Notes: a model not told the origin generated them from the sequence alone. A stretch of DNA of 19,931 nt from Candidatus Eiseniibacteriota bacterium (GCA_034440375.1 JAWXBZ010000198.1:1-19931), one strand, 5' to 3'; positions 2,599 through 19,931 are shown, counted from the stretch's first letter. A program made the numbers and translations.

Positions 2599-4005
2599 TC
2601 AGGGAAATGGAAAGGCGTCCATCACCAGGAGGCGAAGCGAATTCCCAAAGAGGGAGAACCCGAGCAGGAAGAGCGCGAGAAGGCGACCGGACCAGTTCAC
2701 CTCGCAGCGGGCGGCGTTCGACGTCGAACCGAGGTACCAGCGGATGGCCGCCAGGATGGAAAGACCCCACAGAATCGAACCGACCGCGGCCAGCCACCAG
2801 GCGGGTCCTGTGCGGGCGCTCTCGAAGAGATCCCATCGCCCGATGAAACCGATGGTGCCGGGTGAGCCGGCCAGGGAGAGCAGTGCCGCAAGGCCGGCCA
2901 GGCGCGCGGTGATGACGGCGAGGTCGGTGCGTTGATCGCCGGTTACAACGGATGCGGCGGCGGGTCGAAAGACGAAAGCTCCGAAGAAACCGGTGACCAG
3001 TGCCACGAGCACGGCGCGCGCGCCGACGATCGAGCCCTGGGCGGCGCCGGACAGGAGCCATCCCGCCTGCGCGAGCAAGAGGCCGGCCACGACTTCCGCC
3101 GTGTGACGAGCCCGAAGCGCGTCAAGCGTTCCCTTGAACATGGCTCCGAGCGCGATGAGGCCGACCACCAGGCGCCAGGGAATGGTCGTGATCACGGCGT
3201 CCACTGTCGAACCGACTTGACTGGCGAGACCGCTGCCGGTTGTGCGCAGAAGGAGAAGGAGAAGTCCCGCCGGGATGATCGTCGCCACGGCCGAGCGCGT
3301 GACGGAAGGGACTTCGGCCGGGCGGCCACCGGATTGTTGGGGCGGGGAGCTGTCCGTGAACAGCGCATCGAACGACGGTGTTCCCACCGCGCCCTCTGCG
3401 ATGACCAGAACGGGGAGGAGCGCCGCGCCGGCCAGGAGTCCGCTGAATGTCGTCTGGTGGGCGAGGCTGATGCCGATCGGAACGAATGAGGCCTCCGCCG
3501 TCATGCCGATGAGGCAGGCAAACCCGACGGCGGCGACGGCGCCCCGGCCGGCACTCCGTGCGAGGAATCGCGAGGCCGCTCCCCGCGACGCGCCGGATCG
3601 AACCGCGAGGAACACGAGAGCGAGAGCCAGGAACTGGAGGGCCATGAGAGCCGAGAGCGCATCCGAGGCGCGCGCCGCCAGACAACCGGCAAGGGAGACG
3701 TAAATTAACTCGCTCCGACCACCCAGCAGGAGGGAGGCCAGGGTTGTCGCCAGAATGACGCGGATGACAAGGAGCGTCGGGGCATCGGAACGAAAAAAAT
3801 CGCCGGCCAGGGCAGCCGGTTCGAACGGCACGGCGAAGCTGGCGGCGAGTGCGATCAGCGCGGTGATCGGCGCGAACCGCCGGGCCGTGAGCCAGGAGAC
3901 GTCCCGACTCCGTTCCAGGAGAAGAATGAGGATTCCGCCGATGATCAGAACCAGTTCCGGCCAGAGCCATCGGAGGGACGCGGCAACAGGAAGCGGCTCA
4001 AGCAT
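2599..4005 (-). CDS. NuoN-like (proton-antiporter family) polytopic membrane protein, degenerate
   Basis: LWPELVLIIGGILILLLE N-terminus, ASRFLARSAGRGAVAAVGFACLIGMTAEASF, IALGAMFKGTLDAL and LLSLAGSPGTIGFIGRW follow the NuoN pattern. Start ATG 4005 overlaps the upstream stop by 8 nt; 468 aa. Confidence 0.8.
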   Translation of the reverse strand: MLEPLPVAASLRWLWPELVLIIGGILILLLERSRDVSWLTARRFAPITALIALAASFAVPFEPAALAGDFFRSDAPTLLVIRVILATTLASLLLGGRSELIYVSLAGCLAARASDALSALMALQFLALALVFLAVRSGASRGAASRFLARSAGRGAVAAVGFACLIGMTAEASFVPIGISLAHQTTFSGLLAGAALLPVLVIAEGAVGTPSFDALFTDSSPPQQSGGRPAEVPSVTRSAVATIIPAGLLLLLLRTTGSGLASQVGSTVDAVITTIPWRLVVGLIALGAMFKGTLDALRARHTAEVVAGLLLAQAGWLLSGAAQGSIVGARAVLVALVTGFFGAFVFRPAAASVVTGDQRTDLAVITARLAGLAALLSLAGSPGTIGFIGRWDLFESARTGPAWWLAAVGSILWGLSILAAIRWYLGSTSNAARCEVNWSGRLLALFLLGFSLFGNSLRLLVMDAFPFP

Positions 4006-4618
4006 CGGGGCCGCTTCCCAGGCGCTGACACACGGCGGCGGTGGCCAGGCCGATGGCGACCAGGAGGACGGCCGCCGCCGGCCCTGAGGGACCGATTCCC
4101 GCCTGCTTTGCGGCAATGACGAAAGCCGCCCCGGCAATCAGCGAGGCGCCGAGCACGCCCGCGGCCGGCGAGTTGATCCGGCGAAGCGAGGCCAGCGGGT
4201 CCGGTGACTGGAGTAACTCCGGCCTATTTGATGCCGAAGGCAAGCACTGCCAGGCGATGGCCAGGGTGATGGCCGACCATTCGAATGCGAAGAGATAGCG
4301 CGTCAGGACCAGTCGTGCGATTTCCTGGCGGGACGGCTCTGTTGCGTTGCCTCCCGGGATCAGGTGCCAGACGGCCGTTATGGCGAGCAGGAAAAGAAGG
4401 ACGCCGAGGAGCGCGAGGGCGGGGCGGGGGCGTGGCACGGGTTCTGCGATCAGGCCCGGGGCCAGGAGCAACAGAAACGCCGCGAGACTGGCGGCATAGG
4501 ACAGGAGGCGCCCGCGCCCTGGCACTTCGAACAGCTGCCAGAAGGCTTGCATCAACAGAAGCAACAACGCGGCGGTGAGCAGGGTGTCGCCGGTGCGATC
4601 GCCATGTTTCGGAGTCAT
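3998..4618 (-). CDS. membrane protein resembling a NuoJ-NuoK fusion, degenerate
   Basis: LLSYAASLAAFLLLL (NuoJ TM3 VYAGAI-like), EIARLVLTRYLFAFEWSAITLAIA (NuoJ TM5 YLLPFE-like), then LRRIN...AAFVIAA...SGPAAAVLLVAIGLATAAV (NuoK TM2-3-like). It lies directly upstream of the NuoN-like gene. Confidence 0.65.
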   Translation of the reverse strand: MTPKHGDRTGDTLLTAALLLLLMQAFWQLFEVPGRGRLLSYAASLAAFLLLLAPGLIAEPVPRPRPALALLGVLLFLLAITAVWHLIPGGNATEPSRQEIARLVLTRYLFAFEWSAITLAIAWQCLPSASNRPELLQSPDPLASLRRINSPAAGVLGASLIAGAAFVIAAKQAGIGPSGPAAAVLLVAIGLATAAVCQRLGSGPDA

Positions 4619-4689
4619 TCGGTACCCTTAGGCATGGTTGGGTGTTGAATCGCAGCGGCTGGATGGCCGCCGGAAGCGGCCGACCCACC

Positions 4690-4743
4690 TTGCGCTGATC
4701 GAGCGCGCCTCCGTATCATAGAAACCGCGTCGGACAGCGTCAA
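4690..4743. promoter_or_regulatory. putative bidirectional sigma70 promoter with overlapping -10 elements
   Basis: Minus: TTGACG (4743-4738), 17 nt, TATGAT (4720-4715). Plus: TTGCGC (4690-4695), 18 nt, TATCAT (4714-4719). Confidence 0.6.
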
Positions 4744-4809
4744 TGAAAGTCCCGGCGGCCCCGCCGTCGGCCGTGGGCCGCAGTACGGCGCCCGACCGCT
4801 GGGTGGTAC

Positions 4810-5625
4810 ATGTATATCCTTGGATCGATACTTCGTTGGGCCGTGCTGGCCGGCTATCTCGTCAGCGCCGTGCTGTACATTGCCCGTCTGCGCGGGCGTC
4901 ATCCCCGGCATGCGGACGTGGCGGCAGCCCTCCTGCTTGCCACCCTGACCCTTCACACGCTCCTCCTTGGCGAGACGTTCCTGGAAACCGGTCGTCTGCA
5001 ATTTCTCCGGTCGGGACTGTCGGCCATGACTCTCCTCGCGCTGGCCCTTTCGGCCATCACGCTGATCCTGTCGGCCCGATTGAAGAACGCCTCCCTCGGG
5101 GCATTCACGGTGCCGCTGGCCGCTCTCTTCCAGGTCCTGTCCCTGGTTGATCGACCCAGCCGTGTCGGCATCGATCCGCTGCTCGATTCCTACTGGTTCG
5201 AGGTACACCTGACGAGCGCCTTTCTTGGCTATGCGGCATTCGGCCTGGCATTCGCGGCGGGCATCATGTACCTGGCGCTGGCCGGCTCGATCCGTTCGCG
5301 CCGAATTGGAAACCTGTTCGAGCGTCTCCCGTCGCTGACCACTCTCGATCGGCTCGGCTCGATCGCCGCGCTGACGGGACTCCTGTTTTTCACGATCGGA
5401 CTCATTTCGGGGGCCGTCTGGTCCTCGTCCGCCACCGGCCGGCCGGTCAGCGGCGAGCCCAAGGAACTGCTGGCCCTCATCACCTGGCTGCTCTTCGCGG
5501 GGCAGGTTTTCCTGCGGTGGCGATCCGGCTGGCATGGGCGGCGGTCCGCCCTGCTCTCGATCGCCGGCTTCGTGGCCGCCCTGGTGACGATCCTCGGCGG
5601 CGGGTCCGGGAGACATCCGTTGTGA
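4810..5625 (+). CDS. cytochrome c assembly (CcsA/HemX/YpjD-like) membrane protein
   Basis: About eight TM segments with WFEVHLTSAFLGYAAF, RLPSLTTLDRL, GLISGAVW...EPKELLALITW, GWHGRRSA and C-terminal His (GRHPL). Directly upstream of hemA. Confidence 0.85.
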   Translation: MYILGSILRWAVLAGYLVSAVLYIARLRGRHPRHADVAAALLLATLTLHTLLLGETFLETGRLQFLRSGLSAMTLLALALSAITLILSARLKNASLGAFTVPLAALFQVLSLVDRPSRVGIDPLLDSYWFEVHLTSAFLGYAAFGLAFAAGIMYLALAGSIRSRRIGNLFERLPSLTTLDRLGSIAALTGLLFFTIGLISGAVWSSSATGRPVSGEPKELLALITWLLFAGQVFLRWRSGWHGRRSALLSIAGFVAALVTILGGGSGRHPL

Positions 5626-6941
5626 GCGGGCTTCCCGGCATTCGGGTGACCGGCCTCTCGCATCATACGGCCCCGCTTGAACTGCGCGAACGCCTCACCC
5701 TCCCGATTTCCGAGTACGGGCCGCTCGTCCGGCAAATTGTCAATGAGGATGGATGGCTCGAGGGGGTCGTCATTTCAACCTGCAACCGGACCGAGTTGAT
5801 CGCGGTGACATCGGCGGCGGGCGCCTCCATTCGCCATGAGGCCTTTTCGCGCTTTCTCTCCGGCCGGGCCGGGGAATCGATCGATCGATACCTGTACCGT
5901 TTCGAGTCGGCGGCGGCGGTGGAACATCTCTTTCGCGTGGCGGCCAGCCTCGACAGCCTGGTGCTGGGTGAAGCGCAGATTCTCGGCCAGATCAACGAGG
6001 CGTTTGGCTCGGCGGCCGAGGCCGGCACCGTCGGACCGATTCTGGATCGCCTCTTTTCTCGCGCCCGACAGGCGGCCAAGCGGGTACGTCACGAAACCGG
6101 CATCGGCGAAGGACATGTTTCCCTGGCCTCGGTGGCCGTCGAACTGGCGGAGAAAATCTTCGGCCGGCTGGCCGGTCGTTCGGCCATGGTCATCGGCGCG
6201 GGCGATATCGCCCTGCTCACGCTTCGCCACCTGGCCGCGGCCGGCGTGCGCCGCGTGTCGGTCACCAATCGCACCGGCGAACGGGCGATCGACCTGGCGG
6301 CCCGGATGGGCGGGGTGCCGATCGACTTCGAGCGACGCTTCGACGCATTGACCGACGTTGATATCGTCCTGTCGACCACGGCGTCACCGGCCCCGATCAT
6401 GACCCGCACCGACCTGGCTCCGGTGATGGCGCGCCGCCGGCACCGCCCGATCTTCCTCATCGATCTGGCACTCCCGCGGGACATCGATCCCGCGGTGGCT
6501 GATCTGGAAAACGTCTTTCTCTACAACATCGATGATCTCGGCAACGTGGTCGAACGAAACCGGTCGGAGCGGCGGGGCGAGGCGGACCGGGCCCGGGTCA
6601 TCGTGGCGGACGAGGCGGGGCGCTTCGTCGATTGGCTGGCCACGCAGCATGCAGTGCCGACCGTCGTGGCCCTGCGCGAACGTCTCGATTCGATCCGCCT
6701 GGTGGAGGAAAACCGGCTGCTCGATCGACTTGGCCATTTGTCCGAGAGGGACAAGGAAGCGGTGCGGGCGTTCGCCGGAAACCTGGTGGGCAAGATCCTG
6801 CACGAGCCGAGCGTGCGACTGCGTGACGCACGTGACCCGCGCGAGACGGCGCGATTGATCGAGGCGGCCCGCCTCTTGTTCGCGCTCGACGAATCGAACG
6901 ACGGCGACCAGTCCAACGGACACGATCGACGGAATGATTGA
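5622..6941 (+). CDS. hemA: glutamyl-tRNA reductase
   Basis: GLSHHTAPLELRERL, catalytic STCNRTE, HLFRVAASLDSLVLGEAQILGQI, GAG dinucleotide-binding loop, IDLALPRDID. GTG start overlaps the upstream TGA (GTGA). Confidence 0.97.
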   Translation: MSGLPGIRVTGLSHHTAPLELRERLTLPISEYGPLVRQIVNEDGWLEGVVISTCNRTELIAVTSAAGASIRHEAFSRFLSGRAGESIDRYLYRFESAAAVEHLFRVAASLDSLVLGEAQILGQINEAFGSAAEAGTVGPILDRLFSRARQAAKRVRHETGIGEGHVSLASVAVELAEKIFGRLAGRSAMVIGAGDIALLTLRHLAAAGVRRVSVTNRTGERAIDLAARMGGVPIDFERRFDALTDVDIVLSTTASPAPIMTRTDLAPVMARRRHRPIFLIDLALPRDIDPAVADLENVFLYNIDDLGNVVERNRSERRGEADRARVIVADEAGRFVDWLATQHAVPTVVALRERLDSIRLVEENRLLDRLGHLSERDKEAVRAFAGNLVGKILHEPSVRLRDARDPRETARLIEAARLLFALDESNDGDQSNGHDRRND

Positions 6942-7566
6942 CGTCCGCAGCCGCCGCGCTGCAGGCGCCGCGGTCGTGGTCCTGACCCTCGGCATCGTGG
7001 TGGCGGCACTTCTGTTGTCCGATCCATCGCGCCGGGACACCCGTGTCGTGCTTCTCGGTATCGGGGAGGAGCTGGTGCTCGATCCCTCCGGCGGGAATCG
7101 CCTGCGCCTGGTGACCGTGACCACCGAGGCGGATGGGCATCACACGCTCTTTCTCGAATCATCCCCGCTTGGAGCATCAGCCACCCCGGTCCGGTTGACC
7201 AGCCGGGAGCCTCTCCTCCTGGCCCATCATTCCCTCCGCCTCCTTTCCGTTCGTCCGGACGAGGCGCGGGGGGCGGCCGTGCAACTGCAATGGATTCCCA
7301 GGAACTCCGACGCGCCGAGGCCCCTTTTTTCGGTGGGGGAGGAGGTGGTGCGGTTGCCGGTCAGCGGCCACTCGCTCGAAATTCGGGTGATCGGCGACGT
7401 CCCGCCACCGGGCCGGGGGCCACTCGACATCGAGGTGGCCGGACTCCCCGAGGGGCCCACCCGGGTTCGCCTTGCGTGGAGCGGAACTGCTCCGGTGGGT
7501 TCTCTTGCCGAGCTCCGCTGGATCGGCACCCGCGAACGGCTGCTGGCCCGAATCGAGGTCCGCTAG
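6934..7566 (+). CDS. hypothetical single-TM-anchored extracytoplasmic beta-rich protein with two internal repeats
   Basis: Basic N-terminus plus hydrophobic helix (aa 9-28). Start overlaps the hemA stop (ATGATTGA). Confidence 0.7.
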   Translation: MIDVRSRRAAGAAVVVLTLGIVVAALLLSDPSRRDTRVVLLGIGEELVLDPSGGNRLRLVTVTTEADGHHTLFLESSPLGASATPVRLTSREPLLLAHHSLRLLSVRPDEARGAAVQLQWIPRNSDAPRPLFSVGEEVVRLPVSGHSLEIRVIGDVPPPGRGPLDIEVAGLPEGPTRVRLAWSGTAPVGSLAELRWIGTRERLLARIEVR

Positions 7567-14691: not shown

Positions 14692-15076
14692 CCGAGTCCG
14701 GCTGGCCCGTCTCGTCCGCCTTGTTCTGGCGGGCGAGGGGCGGCGGGGCGCGCGCGTGGGCATCGTGCTGACCGACAACGAGGAACTCCGCCGCCTCAAT
14801 GCCGCGTATCGCGGCCGGGATTTGGTTACCGACGTGCTGTCCTTCCCCGCCGAGGCGACGGACTCCGAGGACGGCCGCTATCTCGGCGACATCGCCATCT
14901 CGCTCGAGAGGGCCGGTGAGCAGGCGCCCCGATTCGGCAACGAATTTCCGGACGAGGTCGACCGACTGCTGGTTCACGGCCTCCTGCACCTGTGCGGCCA
15001 CGATCATCATGCACCGGCTGACGGGCGCCGGATGAAGGCACGCGAGCGGGCGTATCTCGATCCAGCTTCTCGATGA
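14654..15076 (+). CDS. ybeY: rRNA maturation endoribonuclease YbeY
   Basis: LNAAYRGRD..TDVLSFP, LGDIAIS, HGLLHLCGHDH zinc motif. GTG start at 14654 is inferred. Confidence 0.93.
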   Translation: MSIAILWKKNPVDRVRLARLVRLVLAGEGRRGARVGIVLTDNEELRRLNAAYRGRDLVTDVLSFPAEATDSEDGRYLGDIAISLERAGEQAPRFGNEFPDEVDRLLVHGLLHLCGHDHHAPADGRRMKARERAYLDPASR

Positions 15077-16068
15077 CCTGGATTTTTCTCCCGCTGGCCC
15101 TGTCGTCCGGCCTGGTCGCCACTTTCCTGGCCTTCGCGCAGCATGCGCTGCTGTCGGCGGTTGCCGAGCGGGATCTGGAGGGTCCCCGGGGTGAGGACTA
15201 TGCGGACCAGGCGATGGTCACCCGCCTGATGGAGCGGCCCCGTTCGGTTTATCTCCAGCTGTCGGCGCTGCGCAATGCGCTCCGATGGCTTGCCATTGCC
15301 GCGGCGGCGGCGCTCGGCGTGCCGGCCGGCACCTATGGAGTTCTGGGCGCGGCGCTTCTCGCGGCAGCGATCCTGGTTCTGCTCGAGGAGGAACTGCCGC
15401 TCCGACTGGTGCTGCGCGATCCCATCGGCTGGGCCCTGCGGCTCCTGCCGCCACTGGAGCTTCCCCTTCGGGCGCTCCGCTCCCTCGGCTGGCTGTTCGA
15501 GGGAATCTACACTGGTTGCCGACTCCTGGTCCGTACCAGCCACCGCCGCGAGCCGCCACTCTCGGTCGAGGAGTTGACCATGATGGCCGCCTCGGGCGGT
15601 GCCGATCTCGGCATCGAGGAGCGGCGAATTCTGCGGGGCATCTTTCGATCGAGCGGTATCCTGGTGGCCGACATCATGACGCCGCGGGATCGTGTCCAGG
15701 CCCTCGACGCGGCCGGCAATGTCGGGCGGGCTCTCGAAATGTTTCGTTCGTCCCGCCACTCAAGGGTGCCGGTATACGAGGACTCCATGGACCGCGTTGT
15801 CGGCGTGGCCCATGCCAAGGACTTTCTCCGGCTGACCTACGACGCCACCGCCCAGGCCGCCCCGCTCCAAGATTTCCTGCGCGCCGCCTATTTCGTGCGT
15901 CAGGATCGGCGGATCCACGAACTGTTCGAGGAATTGCGCGAGGGACGCATCCACCTGGCTGTTGTGGTCGACCGACTCGGCCGCACGACGGGCATCGTCA
16001 GCCTGGACGACATCCTGGAAGAGATCGTCGGCGAACTGCACGATGACCTGGAAACGGCGGCCCGATGA
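15073..16068 (+). CDS. CNNM/hemolysin-family (DUF21 + CBS pair) membrane protein lacking C-terminal CorC domain
   Basis: Hydrophobic N-terminal region, VADIMTPR, HSRVPVY, HLAVVVDRLGRTTGIVSLDDILEEIVGE. ATGA overlap with ybeY. Confidence 0.88.
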   Translation: MTWIFLPLALSSGLVATFLAFAQHALLSAVAERDLEGPRGEDYADQAMVTRLMERPRSVYLQLSALRNALRWLAIAAAAALGVPAGTYGVLGAALLAAAILVLLEEELPLRLVLRDPIGWALRLLPPLELPLRALRSLGWLFEGIYTGCRLLVRTSHRREPPLSVEELTMMAASGGADLGIEERRILRGIFRSSGILVADIMTPRDRVQALDAAGNVGRALEMFRSSRHSRVPVYEDSMDRVVGVAHAKDFLRLTYDATAQAAPLQDFLRAAYFVRQDRRIHELFEELREGRIHLAVVVDRLGRTTGIVSLDDILEEIVGELHDDLETAAR

Positions 16069-16084
16069 TGTGGAGCCGAGCCCG

Positions 16085-17293
16085 ATGATACTGTGGCTGG
16101 TCGTGCTGCTCCTCCTGCTCCTGGCTCTTGCACTGCGCTCCGCCGCGGGGGGGCTCACGGCGATGGATCCCTCGCGCCTGGCGCCGACCGAGGAGGCGGC
16201 TGGCCTGGCCGCGCCGCCCCGGCTCGAACAGGCCGTCGCCGTCGCGCAATTCGGGTCCGCCCTGTCGGCGGCCGGGTCGGCAGCCCTGGCTTCCGGCGCC
16301 GCCATGGAACGATTCGGCTGGGGGGGCTTCGCTGCCGTCTGGGTGGCAGCCGGCGTCCTTGCCTACCCCTTGCTTGAAATATTCCCCTTCCTTTACCTGA
16401 CGCCACGCGGCGGGCGACGGATGGCGGCGGGGCTCCTGGCCTACTGGCCGCTCTCACTGCCGCTCGGCGCAATTCGGAGCGCACTCCGCTGGGTCATCGA
16501 ACGGATCATCCCCGGTCCCGGCCCGAACTCGTCGGTCGTGATGGCCGTCCGGCGGGAGACGCTTGCTGCACTCTCCGACGAGCGGGGAGAGGCCCGCACC
16601 TTGCGTCAGGCGCAGAAGCAGCTGGTGACACAGGTCTACGAGTTCAGCGAATCAACCGTGGCGGAGGTGATGGTGCCGCGGAGCCGCGTGGTGGGGCTTC
16701 CGGCCGAGTCGACGGTGGGGGATGCCGTGGCGCTTGAGGCCGAGCATCAATTCAGCCGGTACCCGGTCTTTCGCGGAACGCTCGATCAGATTGACGGCGT
16801 GCTGCATATCCACGATCTCCTTTCCGCGCCGGACCTCGCGTCTTCCATCACGCCGCACCTTCGGTCAATCCCGTTCGCGCCGGAGGCCAAGAAGTGCGAT
16901 GAACTCCTGTCAGAACTCCGGCGCGGGCATCACCACGCCGCCATCGTCGTGGACGAATTCGGTGGTACCGCCGGCTGGGTCACGGTGGAGGATCTGCTCG
17001 AGGAACTCGTCGGCGAGATTCGGGACGAGCATGATATCGAGGAGGAGGCGGTCCGCTCCATTGGCCGCCGGACCTGGATGGTGGATGCCAGCATCCGGAT
17101 CGACGACCTGAATCGATCCCTTCATCTGGAGATTCCCGACGGGGACTACGAGACGCTGGCCGGCTATCTCCTGGAGGAGATGCAGCGGATTCCCCGGCGG
17201 GGCGAGGCACTGCTGATCGAGGGGGTTCGCTTCGTGATGGCCGAGGTGGACTCGCGGCGCATCCTGAAGGTGCGTGTCGAGCGGGTTGACTGA
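16085..17293 (+). CDS. CNNM/hemolysin-family (TM + CBS pair + CorC/HlyC) protein
   Basis: [57 protein letters not shown]...IP...[14 protein letters not shown] at 16072-16075 before ATG 16085. Confidence 0.9.
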
Positions 17294-18319: not shown

Positions 18320-19774
18320 CTATCGAACAACCATGAGGCGTCGGACTGCCACGCCCGGGGAATTGCCGGAACGGGCGAAGTAGTGCCCCGGAGATGCAAG
18401 AGTCCCGTGAGCCGTTCGGCCATCCCATTCGAACTCAATTGACCCCTCCGCTTCCCCACCTCGCCGGTTGGAACGGCGTCCGATGAGATCCGCCACCCGC
18501 CGGCCGGTGATGTCGACGATGGAGACCGTCACGAAGTCTTCCGCCTTTAAGCTCGTGACCTGGCGCGCCCCCGTTTTTTCCGTCGTCGTCGTCGAAAGGA
18601 CAATGCGAACCGGATCACCGGAGTTGACGAGAACCATTGGCATCGCCGGTGGTGCGGGCGTCACCGTAATCTCCGGAACCTCTGGCGCCGCCATCACCAC
18701 CGGAGCCTCCGGTGCCACCGTCATCACCGAAACGTCGGCGGCGCCCTCGGGGTTAACCGGAAACGGGGTGTAACAGAAATAGGGCCAGCCCCGCAGGAAT
18801 TGGGGCACCCGCCGGCCCAGATGCGCCAGCGAAAAGAGCGTGCCGTGGCCCCTGAAGTCGATATCGCCGAGTGAAATTACACTTCCCGTTATGATCCAGT
18901 TGCTGGACGAGAAGTCAAACGTGCCGGTCGAATAGATTCCGATCGGATAATTCCCGCTCCCGATGGCTACCGGTCCCGATGAGATGAGATGCTTGACTGC
19001 GAGGCCGAGACCCGCCACCGGTTCCATCTGGACCCGTCCCTTGAGAATGGTCGTGCCCCCAATCCAGTAGAATTGACTGAGCCGGTCATTTGGGGTGGCG
19101 CCGACGAAACGGGTGTTGATCAGCGTGGCTCGAATCGGCGGTCCGCCGGCACCGATCGTGAGGTTCGTGACCCCGTAAACGAACGGTGTGGCAGCAGCGA
19201 AGTTGCCGATCACTGCCGAATCACCGGCCGTCGGCGGAAATATGCCGGTGGCGGCGTCAAACGGCCACCCGGATCGGCACTCGATCTCGAGAAGATTTCC
19301 AGGTGTAAGCTTCCACACGATGTCCGGGTGGGGAGAGGTCCCATCCGGCCAACTTTCGAGAGTGAGGCCATGGCGGTCACGCAATTCCAGGATCGGCGCG
19401 CCGGCAATGCGGCGGGCCAGGACCTCATAGCAGGTGCTTCCGGGGAACGAGTCGGGTTCGGTGTAGAGCGGTGGCGGGAAAATCGTGTAACTGGTGCCGG
19501 CAAGACCGCCACACCGAACTCGCCGCGCACCGTCAAGATCACCATTCGCGTGAAGGCTGGCGTTGGCGCACAGTTGTCCGCTGATCCGAATGTTGCTGAC
19601 GCCGAGAACGCCATTGAGATGGCAGCTTGGCTGCCCAAGCGCCGTCGGCGGTTGAACCAGCCCGAAGGGCGCGGTCATGATGGCCACCAGGCAGACGATC
19701 GCCACCCGCCGCCCGATCATCACCCTCGCGCCCATCGCCATCCGCCGAACAAGGAACATCGATCCGTTCCGCAT
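18320..19774 (-). CDS. secreted hypothetical protein with C-terminal FlgD Ig-like / sorting-type domain
   Basis: Signal-peptide-like RRVAIVCLVAIMTAPFGLVQPPTALG. C-terminal VTVSIVDITGRRVADL...FEWDGRTAHGTLASPGHYFAR...RRLMVVR is the FlgD_ig-type tail. GAGG SD precedes ATG 19774 (start uncertain). Confidence 0.8.
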   Translation of the reverse strand: MRNGSMFLVRRMAMGARVMIGRRVAIVCLVAIMTAPFGLVQPPTALGQPSCHLNGVLGVSNIRISGQLCANASLHANGDLDGARRVRCGGLAGTSYTIFPPPLYTEPDSFPGSTCYEVLARRIAGAPILELRDRHGLTLESWPDGTSPHPDIVWKLTPGNLLEIECRSGWPFDAATGIFPPTAGDSAVIGNFAAATPFVYGVTNLTIGAGGPPIRATLINTRFVGATPNDRLSQFYWIGGTTILKGRVQMEPVAGLGLAVKHLISSGPVAIGSGNYPIGIYSTGTFDFSSSNWIITGSVISLGDIDFRGHGTLFSLAHLGRRVPQFLRGWPYFCYTPFPVNPEGAADVSVMTVAPEAPVVMAAPEVPEITVTPAPPAMPMVLVNSGDPVRIVLSTTTTEKTGARQVTSLKAEDFVTVSIVDITGRRVADLIGRRSNRRGGEAEGSIEFEWDGRTAHGTLASPGHYFARSGNSPGVAVRRLMVVR

Positions 19775-19931
19775 CACGCGATCCTCTCGATTCTCAGTTG
19801 ACCACCACGACCCGCTCGGTCGAGCGGCCCACGGACGATTCCAGTGAAAGATAGAAGACACCGGAGGAAGCGCCGCGTCGCCCGGATCTCGCGCCCCCGC
19901 CTCCACCGGACGGGCTCCCACCCCCTGAAGC

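Follow-up and report, generated by a model that had tools for sequence, protein, structure and literature searches.

A NuoN-derived gene lacking the Lys/Glu relay residues and its NuoJ-like partner in a Candidatus Eiseniibacteriota bacterium, at a site held by a second nuo operon in a related genome

The stretch of DNA analysed here, hereafter the window, comprises 19,931 nucleotides (nt) from a Candidatus Eiseniibacteriota bacterium (GCA_034440375.1, JAWXBZ010000198.1:1-19931). On its minus strand it encodes two overlapping open reading frames (ORFs) related to membrane subunits of respiratory complex I, one derived from the antiporter-like subunit NuoN (hereafter N-like) and one resembling NuoJ in part (hereafter J-like):

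2599 to 4005, minus strand: N-like, a NuoN-derived ORF of 468 amino acids; fold of the 14-transmembrane-helix (TM) type kept in the model, no Glu/Lys relay, a single Lys
3998 to 4618, minus strand: J-like, a NuoJ-like ORF of 206 amino acids with six predicted helices
3998 to 4005, minus strand: 8 nt shared by the end of J-like (stop codon) and the start of N-like (ATG), read from the sequence

The frame of N-like is open throughout from 2599 to 4137 (minus strand). The start was placed at the ATG at 4005, giving 468 amino acids, because the N-terminus Met-Leu-(Glu/Asp)-Pro is common to the window ORF and three orthologues. The 8-nt overlap suggests that J-like and N-like are translationally coupled.

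N-like was found to be a true but very remote homologue of NuoN. It passes the gathering cut-off of Pfam PF00361 (Proton_antipo_M) marginally (24.8 bits against 21.5), with the match confined to residues 272-413 and to profile positions 141-291 of 294, and its best match to the NCBIfam NuoN models covers residues 31-410 (E 2.5e-6). Its scores fall far below those set for NuoN equivalogs (NF004446, NF004440, TIGR01770 and others), the best being 26.9 bits against a cut-off of 590, and all NCBIfam NuoN models give at most 27 bits where the cut-offs are 330-630. The sole sequence match in the PDB was chloroplast NdhB (7wff_B, E 0.0019). AlphaFold2 (AF2) modelled N-like with a predicted local distance difference test (pLDDT) score of 86 and a predicted template-modelling score (pTM) of 0.89, the input being a 27-row alignment that itself includes canonical NuoNs, which is a caveat on the fold result. 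When the model was searched with Foldseek, 6khi_B ranked first (E 1.7e-13, TM-score 0.76) and E. coli NuoN (7p61_N) gave a TM-score of 0.74; the top 26 matches were NdhB, NuoN or ND2 chains, with MrpD, NuoM and NuoL ranking below. The predicted structure is thus an antiporter-like 14-TM fold with NuoN as its nearest relative. N-like does not follow nuoM in a nuo operon: the gene upstream is J-like, and the gene downstream is rpsA.

The relay residues were mapped in an L-INS-i alignment of E. coli NuoN (NC_000913.3), 11 other canonical NuoNs and the degenerate family to which N-like belongs, and the E. coli numbering that a first-pass annotation of this ORF had used proved right. E133, K158, K217, K247 and K395 are kept in all 12 canonical NuoNs. 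At the central-axis positions, canonically a Glu in TM5 and a Lys in each of TM7, TM8 and TM12, N-like carries Q, G (E being the adjacent residue), P and R. Altogether E133, E154, K217, H224, K247, K295, Y300 and H305 are replaced, and K158 and K395 have become Arg:

Codon 3634 to 3636, minus strand: Q124 at E. coli E133 (TM5); the other degenerate members have Q, Q and L
N-like, L-INS-i alignment: G at E. coli E154; the other degenerate members have K, R and A
N-like, L-INS-i alignment: R146 at E. coli K158; the other degenerate members have R, R and D
Codons 3391 to 3396, minus strand: E204-G205 at E. coli K217 (TM7); column ambiguous by one, neither residue conserved in orthologues
Codon 3271 to 3273, minus strand: P245 at E. 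coli K247 (TM8); the other degenerate members have P, P, V and T
N-like, L-INS-i alignment: A at E. coli K295; the other degenerate members have A, T, G and S
N-like, L-INS-i alignment: G at E. coli Y300, as in all degenerate members
N-like, L-INS-i alignment: Q at E. coli H305, as in all degenerate members
Codon 2836 to 2838, minus strand: R390 at E. coli K395 (TM12); Arg in all five family members that cover the position

Much of what the first-pass annotation had aligned by eye stands. The substitutions of E133 by Q, K247 by P and K395 by R were recovered; H224, W226 and the remainder of the P-F-H-x-W-x-P-D block after TM7 are absent, a Pro/Ser-rich insert of 10 residues taking its place in the closer family members; and the KRLLxYSSISH motif is lost through the changes at K295, Y300 and H305. 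The proposed inversion of the TM7 Lys to Glu does not hold, as it depends on a shift of one column (alignment A1 places E204 at K217, and L-INS-i places G205 there with E204 adjoining). The orthologues have L/F, R/F and H/R at these two columns, so there is no conserved Glu at the TM7 site. Likewise, the new TM Lys noted at first is not a family feature: K291, the only Lys of N-like, is replaced by R, M, V, R and R in relatives. Conservation of the Q/E/P/R set among orthologues, which the first-pass annotation had put forward as a check, is accordingly partial, with R390 kept in five of five, Q and P kept in part and the Glu not kept.

Over the whole protein, N-like keeps 29 and changes 42 of the 71 columns that are conserved in at least 11 of the 12 canonical NuoNs. 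In purified E. coli complex I, the variants K247A and K395A retain 10-17% of wild-type NADH oxidase activity and 6-8% of wild-type proton pumping; E133A is silent and K217A gives a partial defect (accessible text of PMC13073174). Judged by its sequence, N-like cannot use the canonical Lys/Glu proton relay. The earlier view that it is not a conventional pump fits these data, the chain of protonatable Glu and Lys residues being gone, and a proper alignment with Glu or Lys at the canonical positions, named in advance as fatal to that view, did not materialise. N-like lacks the relay residues, falls short of the equivalog thresholds and stands outside a nuo operon, so that annotating it as complex I subunit N is not warranted.

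The partner J-like matches the NuoJ/ND6 family PF00499 below its gathering cut-off (17.7 bits against 33.2, E 0.0032), the NCBIfam NuoJ model with E 0.006, NuoJ in hhalign with E 7e-4 and a probability of 26%, and, in BLASTP, the NuoJ of the second nuo operon of a related genome (G055, described below) with E 4e-5 across 26 residues. The likeness is restricted to the TM5 motif, at about residues 83-122 (window 4253-4372). NuoJ is a five-TM protein with a conserved TM3; J-like was found to be without NuoJ TM1, and TM3 is not conserved. Residues 1-82 have no match in the G055 operon, and the C-terminus extends about 82-85 residues beyond NuoJ. This extension is colinear with NuoK TM2-TM3 (score 19.4, E 0.0065, probability 6%), a score that none of 100 column shuffles reached, and in BLASTP it matches NuoK with E 0.02, NuoL scoring equally. 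From these alignments J-like may tentatively be regarded as a NuoJ-NuoK fusion. A single homologue was found, P0043, which likewise has 206 amino acids and is 53% identical. The AF2 model of J-like has a pLDDT of 51, and a protein atlas search with J-like returned sub-threshold matches (best score 0.83). For a complex of N-like and J-like the predicted scores were 0.20 and 0.08, where the mark is 0.32, the fold of J-like itself being uncertain. Upstream of the pair a promoter-like sequence was found:

4715 to 4743, minus strand: sigma-70-like promoter match TTGACG-17-TATGAT, 10/12 positions, a consensus match only

This match is placed some 95 nt ahead of the ATG of J-like, inside a 190-nt divergent spacer shared with the ccsA-like gene and hemA, and one sigma-70-like site was found compared with 0.1 expected in shuffles.

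The surroundings of the pair point to its origin. The window genome (G000; 3.96 Mb, 93.7% complete) encodes an ordinary complex I, hereafter operon 1, with nuoA, C, E, F, H, J, K, L, M and N on contig C20 and nuoD on contig C64, and all canonical residues are present in its nuoL-M-N products. Three canonical PF00361 genes were found in this genome in addition to N-like, and no second nuoH, nuoA, nuoJ, nuoK or nuoD. Four related genomes (G055, G046, G062 and G061) carry two nuoH and two nuoD each, and three of the four have two nuoL-M-N sets. These relatives tie the second operon to genes that also flank the pair in the window:

4810 to 6941, plus strand: ccsA-like (HemX-type) gene and hemA, divergent neighbours of the pair that anchor the synteny with the second nuo operon found in relatives

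In G055, which belongs to the same family and a sister genus, nuoA-H-J-K-L is divergent from the ccsA-like gene and hemA on contig C95; the operon runs off that contig and resumes as nuoL-M-N on contig C12. The hemA and ccsA-like genes of G055 share 56% and 54% identity, respectively, with those of the window, and the position of its nuo operon is exactly the site held by J-like and N-like in the window. The order is EIIA, nuoJ-K-L-M-N, hemA, phoH in G046 and nuoL-M-N, ccsA-like, hemA in G062, and the window retains EIIA, hemA and phoH around the pair. Each of the four relatives examined has its second nuo operon linked to hemA, with orientations that differ among them, and a CcsA-family gene of HemX type directly precedes hemA in three genomes (the window genome, G055 and G062).

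The sequence of N-like itself agrees with this context. Its best canonical matches are NuoNs of the operon-2 type, namely P0012 (E 5e-16, 32% identity over the full length) and the operon-2 NuoN of G055 (E 1e-16), compared with E 4e-5 for the operon-1 NuoN of its own genome (31.6 bits in BLASTP; 28% identity in the C-terminal half). In a quick IQ-TREE phylogeny of 25 rows, a clade uniting the degenerate family with P0012 and the G055 operon-2 NuoN was not rejected by the approximately unbiased (AU) test, its log-likelihood being 1.43 better (p-AU 0.62). The unconstrained tree placed the degenerate clade near the base of NuoN on a stem 3.63 long; since the constrained tree is slightly better, we read this placement as long-branch attraction. 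N-like descends from NuoN, the pair holds the syntenic position of the second operon, and the other nuo genes of the second set have been lost. On the grounds of synteny, gene-set counts and operon-2 matches, we consider the pair to be the remains of a second nuoA-H-J-K-L-M-N operon.

These observations suggest the following course of events. An ancestor would have carried the second nuoA-H-J-K-L-M-N operon beside the ccsA-like gene and hemA; nuoA, H, L and M would then have been lost, nuoK at least in part (either gone or fused to J-like), and nuoJ and nuoN would have degenerated. The products would no longer translocate protons via the Lys/Glu relay; the sole basic residue kept at TM12 is Arg, a poor proton donor. 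Both genes would still be expressed, as two co-translated membrane proteins equivalent to the J-(K)-N block in the centre of the membrane arm, and what keeps them would be weak selection, not for transport but for an inert part as structure or scaffold. That N-like and J-like are a weakly selected, non-pumping membrane pair left from a lost second complex I is the reading we favour, and we hold it to be moderately probable.

Several features of the family speak for such selection. Four full-length members are known, of 463-469 amino acids, which align end-to-end down to 43-45% identity with in-frame gaps only. Among 468 positions, 149 are invariant, and the conservation is uneven: 35-60% in the N-terminal 120 residues and TM12, and 0-10% in TM7 and residues 341-360. 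The invariant positions are clustered (variance per 20-residue window 9.7 against 4.2 +/- 1.2, reached by 3 of 10,000 permutations), similarly to what is seen in pairs of canonical NuoNs. The hydropathy of all 15 modelled helices is preserved in each of the four full-length members. In other metagenome strains, the three indel events listed for the pair are net changes of +6, -6 and +1/-1, and the listed variants include V280I, for which a single codon changed twice, and, in J-like, a synonymous substitution in codon L14. The sequencing runs listed as containing window DNA number 20, all of them DNA runs; a metagenome scan for orthologue contigs returned the identical contig only, and a genome-contig scan returned none.

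The strongest rival, which we regard as possible but less probable, holds that both genes are functionless, not-yet-broken leftovers of the deleted second operon, a high G+C content keeping stop codons rare. Several observations weigh for it and against selection. Contigs from sequencing run X14 differ from the window at 42 of 553 bases (7.6%) in N-like and at 64 of 595 bases (10.8%) in J-like and the spacer, compared with 9 of 332 (2.7%) in rpsA, 19 of 410 (4.6%) in the ccsA-like gene and 31 of 781 (4.0%) in hemA; nucleotide divergence of the pair is two to four times that seen in the flanking genes, and the pair is evolving at roughly double the pace of its neighbours. In the quick tree, the stem of the degenerate family is very long, at 3.63 changes per site, and the path from the window protein to P0009 measures 1.68 changes per site compared with 0.34 between the operon-1 NuoNs of the window genome and G055. 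Residues of the FYIMNK group make up 13% of N-like and 25% of canonical NuoN, G+C at second codon positions (GC2) is 0.55 against 0.41-0.45, and G+C at third positions (GC3) is the lowest in the window; the shift in composition matches the direction in which GC-biased mutation would push. The distribution is very narrow, with five near-full-length members and two fragments in 5.8 billion clusters (profile search) and presence in one of the 206 genomes of the phylum, and the reading frame of P0008 is lost some 50 residues short of the end. Conservation within the family is lowest in the TM7 region of the pump core, where 5-10% of positions are invariant, and no neighbouring gene in the window points to a positive function. 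A precedent exists in Mycobacterium leprae, in which the nuo operon is lost and only a nuoN pseudogene is left (accessible part of PMC10068793).

Against simple decay stand the frames, which are intact in four lineages despite a path of 1.68 changes per site, the absence of any but in-frame indels among those listed, the clustered conservation (reached by so few permutations) with helix hydropathy kept, the invariant motifs specific to the family, the J-like orthologue of identical length, and the retained overlap of start and stop codons. Both genes evolve fast with their reading frames preserved, and both are without pumping residues; the pair has thus either acquired a new non-pumping job or is dying slowly. 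Within the reading we favour, a more specific proposal is that a charge-free J-(K)-N block was selected for a non-pumping role, for example as a scaffold tied to the CcsA-like protein and HemA. The linkage of the second nuo operon to the genes of these two is kept in all four relatives examined. We regard the proposal as rather doubtful.

It is improbable that the pair is a repurposed transporter in which the NuoN fold moves another solute without the Lys/Glu relay, as the first-pass annotation had also entertained. The fold appears to be kept, judging from the confidence of the model, and some polar and charged residues that are specific to the family and invariant in it, for example R112, D115, H183, R390 and R398, could be taken in its favour. 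However, nothing indicates such a solute: the window encodes no Mrp, DabA, hydrogenase or other known antiporter-like partner gene, the broken-helix TM7 and the TM7-TM8 loop, which form the substrate-handling region of this fold, are the least conserved parts, and the pair evolves too fast for a tuned transporter. NuoJ and NuoN are neighbours in the membrane arm of complex I, so the retained genes encode adjacent subunits, but that they replace NuoN and NuoJ in the remaining complex I to give fewer pumping sites is hardly credible, since the operon-1 NuoN and NuoJ are intact and very unlike the pair (31.6 bits between N-like and its own NuoN), 42 of the 71 conserved NuoN columns are changed, and J-like is without NuoJ TM1 and a conserved TM3.

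Some further observations concern the operon-1 locus and the rest of the window. Operon 1 (locus L023, contig C20, 28000-41116) runs nuoA-C-E-F-H-J-K-L-M-N without nuoB, D, G or I between, which, with nuoD on contig C64, is an unusual split; a ParE-toxin-family ORF (Pfam E 7.8e-9; L023:11361-11717, minus strand) lies just upstream of its nuoA. In the window, an ORF of 333 amino acids rich in Arg, Gly, Glu and Gln (4615-5616, minus strand) was rejected as a gene, being an antisense shadow of the ccsA-like gene, and an ORF of 210 amino acids after hemA (6934-7566, plus strand) matched no Pfam or NCBIfam family. Two tandem CNNM/CorC-type genes (15073-17293, plus strand) are listed as ORFs overlapping by about 100 nt, the first having CNNM and CBS domains without CorC_HlyC and the second having CBS and CorC_HlyC. 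In an ORF of 533 amino acids (18320-19921, minus strand), which may encode a secreted or surface protein, the one domain recognised is FlgD-Ig-like, at the C-terminus (E 4.9e-6, slightly short of the Pfam cut-off). At 1122-1543, within rpsA, contig depth rises 10- to 100-fold in all four runs compared, and loose ends are numerous; the rise comes from other organisms, whose conserved S1-domain sequence piles up there, and is not a feature of the genome. Rfam and tRNA scans of the window found no RNA gene.

The locus offers a step-by-step view of a redundant respiratory complex being dismantled, as the parent operon is still intact in a sister genus. Two coupled remnant genes appear to persist here, with a fold that is intact in the N-like model and a proton relay that, from the alignment, has been erased as a whole. 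If the pair is under selection, it would represent a natural antiporter-like fold that folds and inserts without any buried Lys or Glu and would help to separate the structural from the catalytic roles of these residues; it would also be a further case in what may be a class of "dead" complex I subunits put to new use. If it is not, it is a caution for annotation, as the respiratory capacity of such genomes would be overstated; one family member is labelled NADH:ubiquinone oxidoreductase subunit N by its source.

Compared with known systems, N-like is closest to canonical NuoN/ND2/Nqo14 (7p61 chain N), with which it shares the length class and, in the model, the fold class (TM-scores 0.74-0.76), and the G-F-I-G-x motif at TM12 is kept. 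It differs by a deletion of about 13 residues between TM3 and TM4 and by its location outside a nuo operon. The same superfamily and fold include MrpD and MrpA (6z16 chain D, 7qru chain D), which matched the model at lower rank (Foldseek E 2e-9 to 1e-8), but the relay residues common to MrpD and NuoN, as given in the accessible text of PMC13073174, are absent from N-like. Setting the pair aside, the Pfam scan found no Mrp-like (CPA3) gene among the 16 ORFs of the window. The same scan of these 16 ORFs found no member of what we take to be the DabA family, which characterizes the DAB systems for CO2 uptake. Several complex I isozymes per bacterium are common (PMC4453560, accessible part), and the operon-2 clusters of relatives (G055 contigs C95 and C12, G046 and G062), together with P0012, share N-terminal motifs with N-like. 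In these clusters the operon is complete and no relay residue of NuoN has been lost, whereas the pair in the window is degenerate and nuoA, H, L and M are gone. A coupled, intact NuoJ/NuoN remnant without relay residues was not found described in the open-access literature searched. Among published cases, the nearest parallel that we found is in Mycobacterium leprae, whose lone nuoN pseudogene is likewise a remnant after loss of the nuo operon (PMC10068793, as far as its accessible part goes); in the present case, however, the frame is intact in several lineages, a second remnant gene is coupled to the first, and conservation is patchy along the protein.

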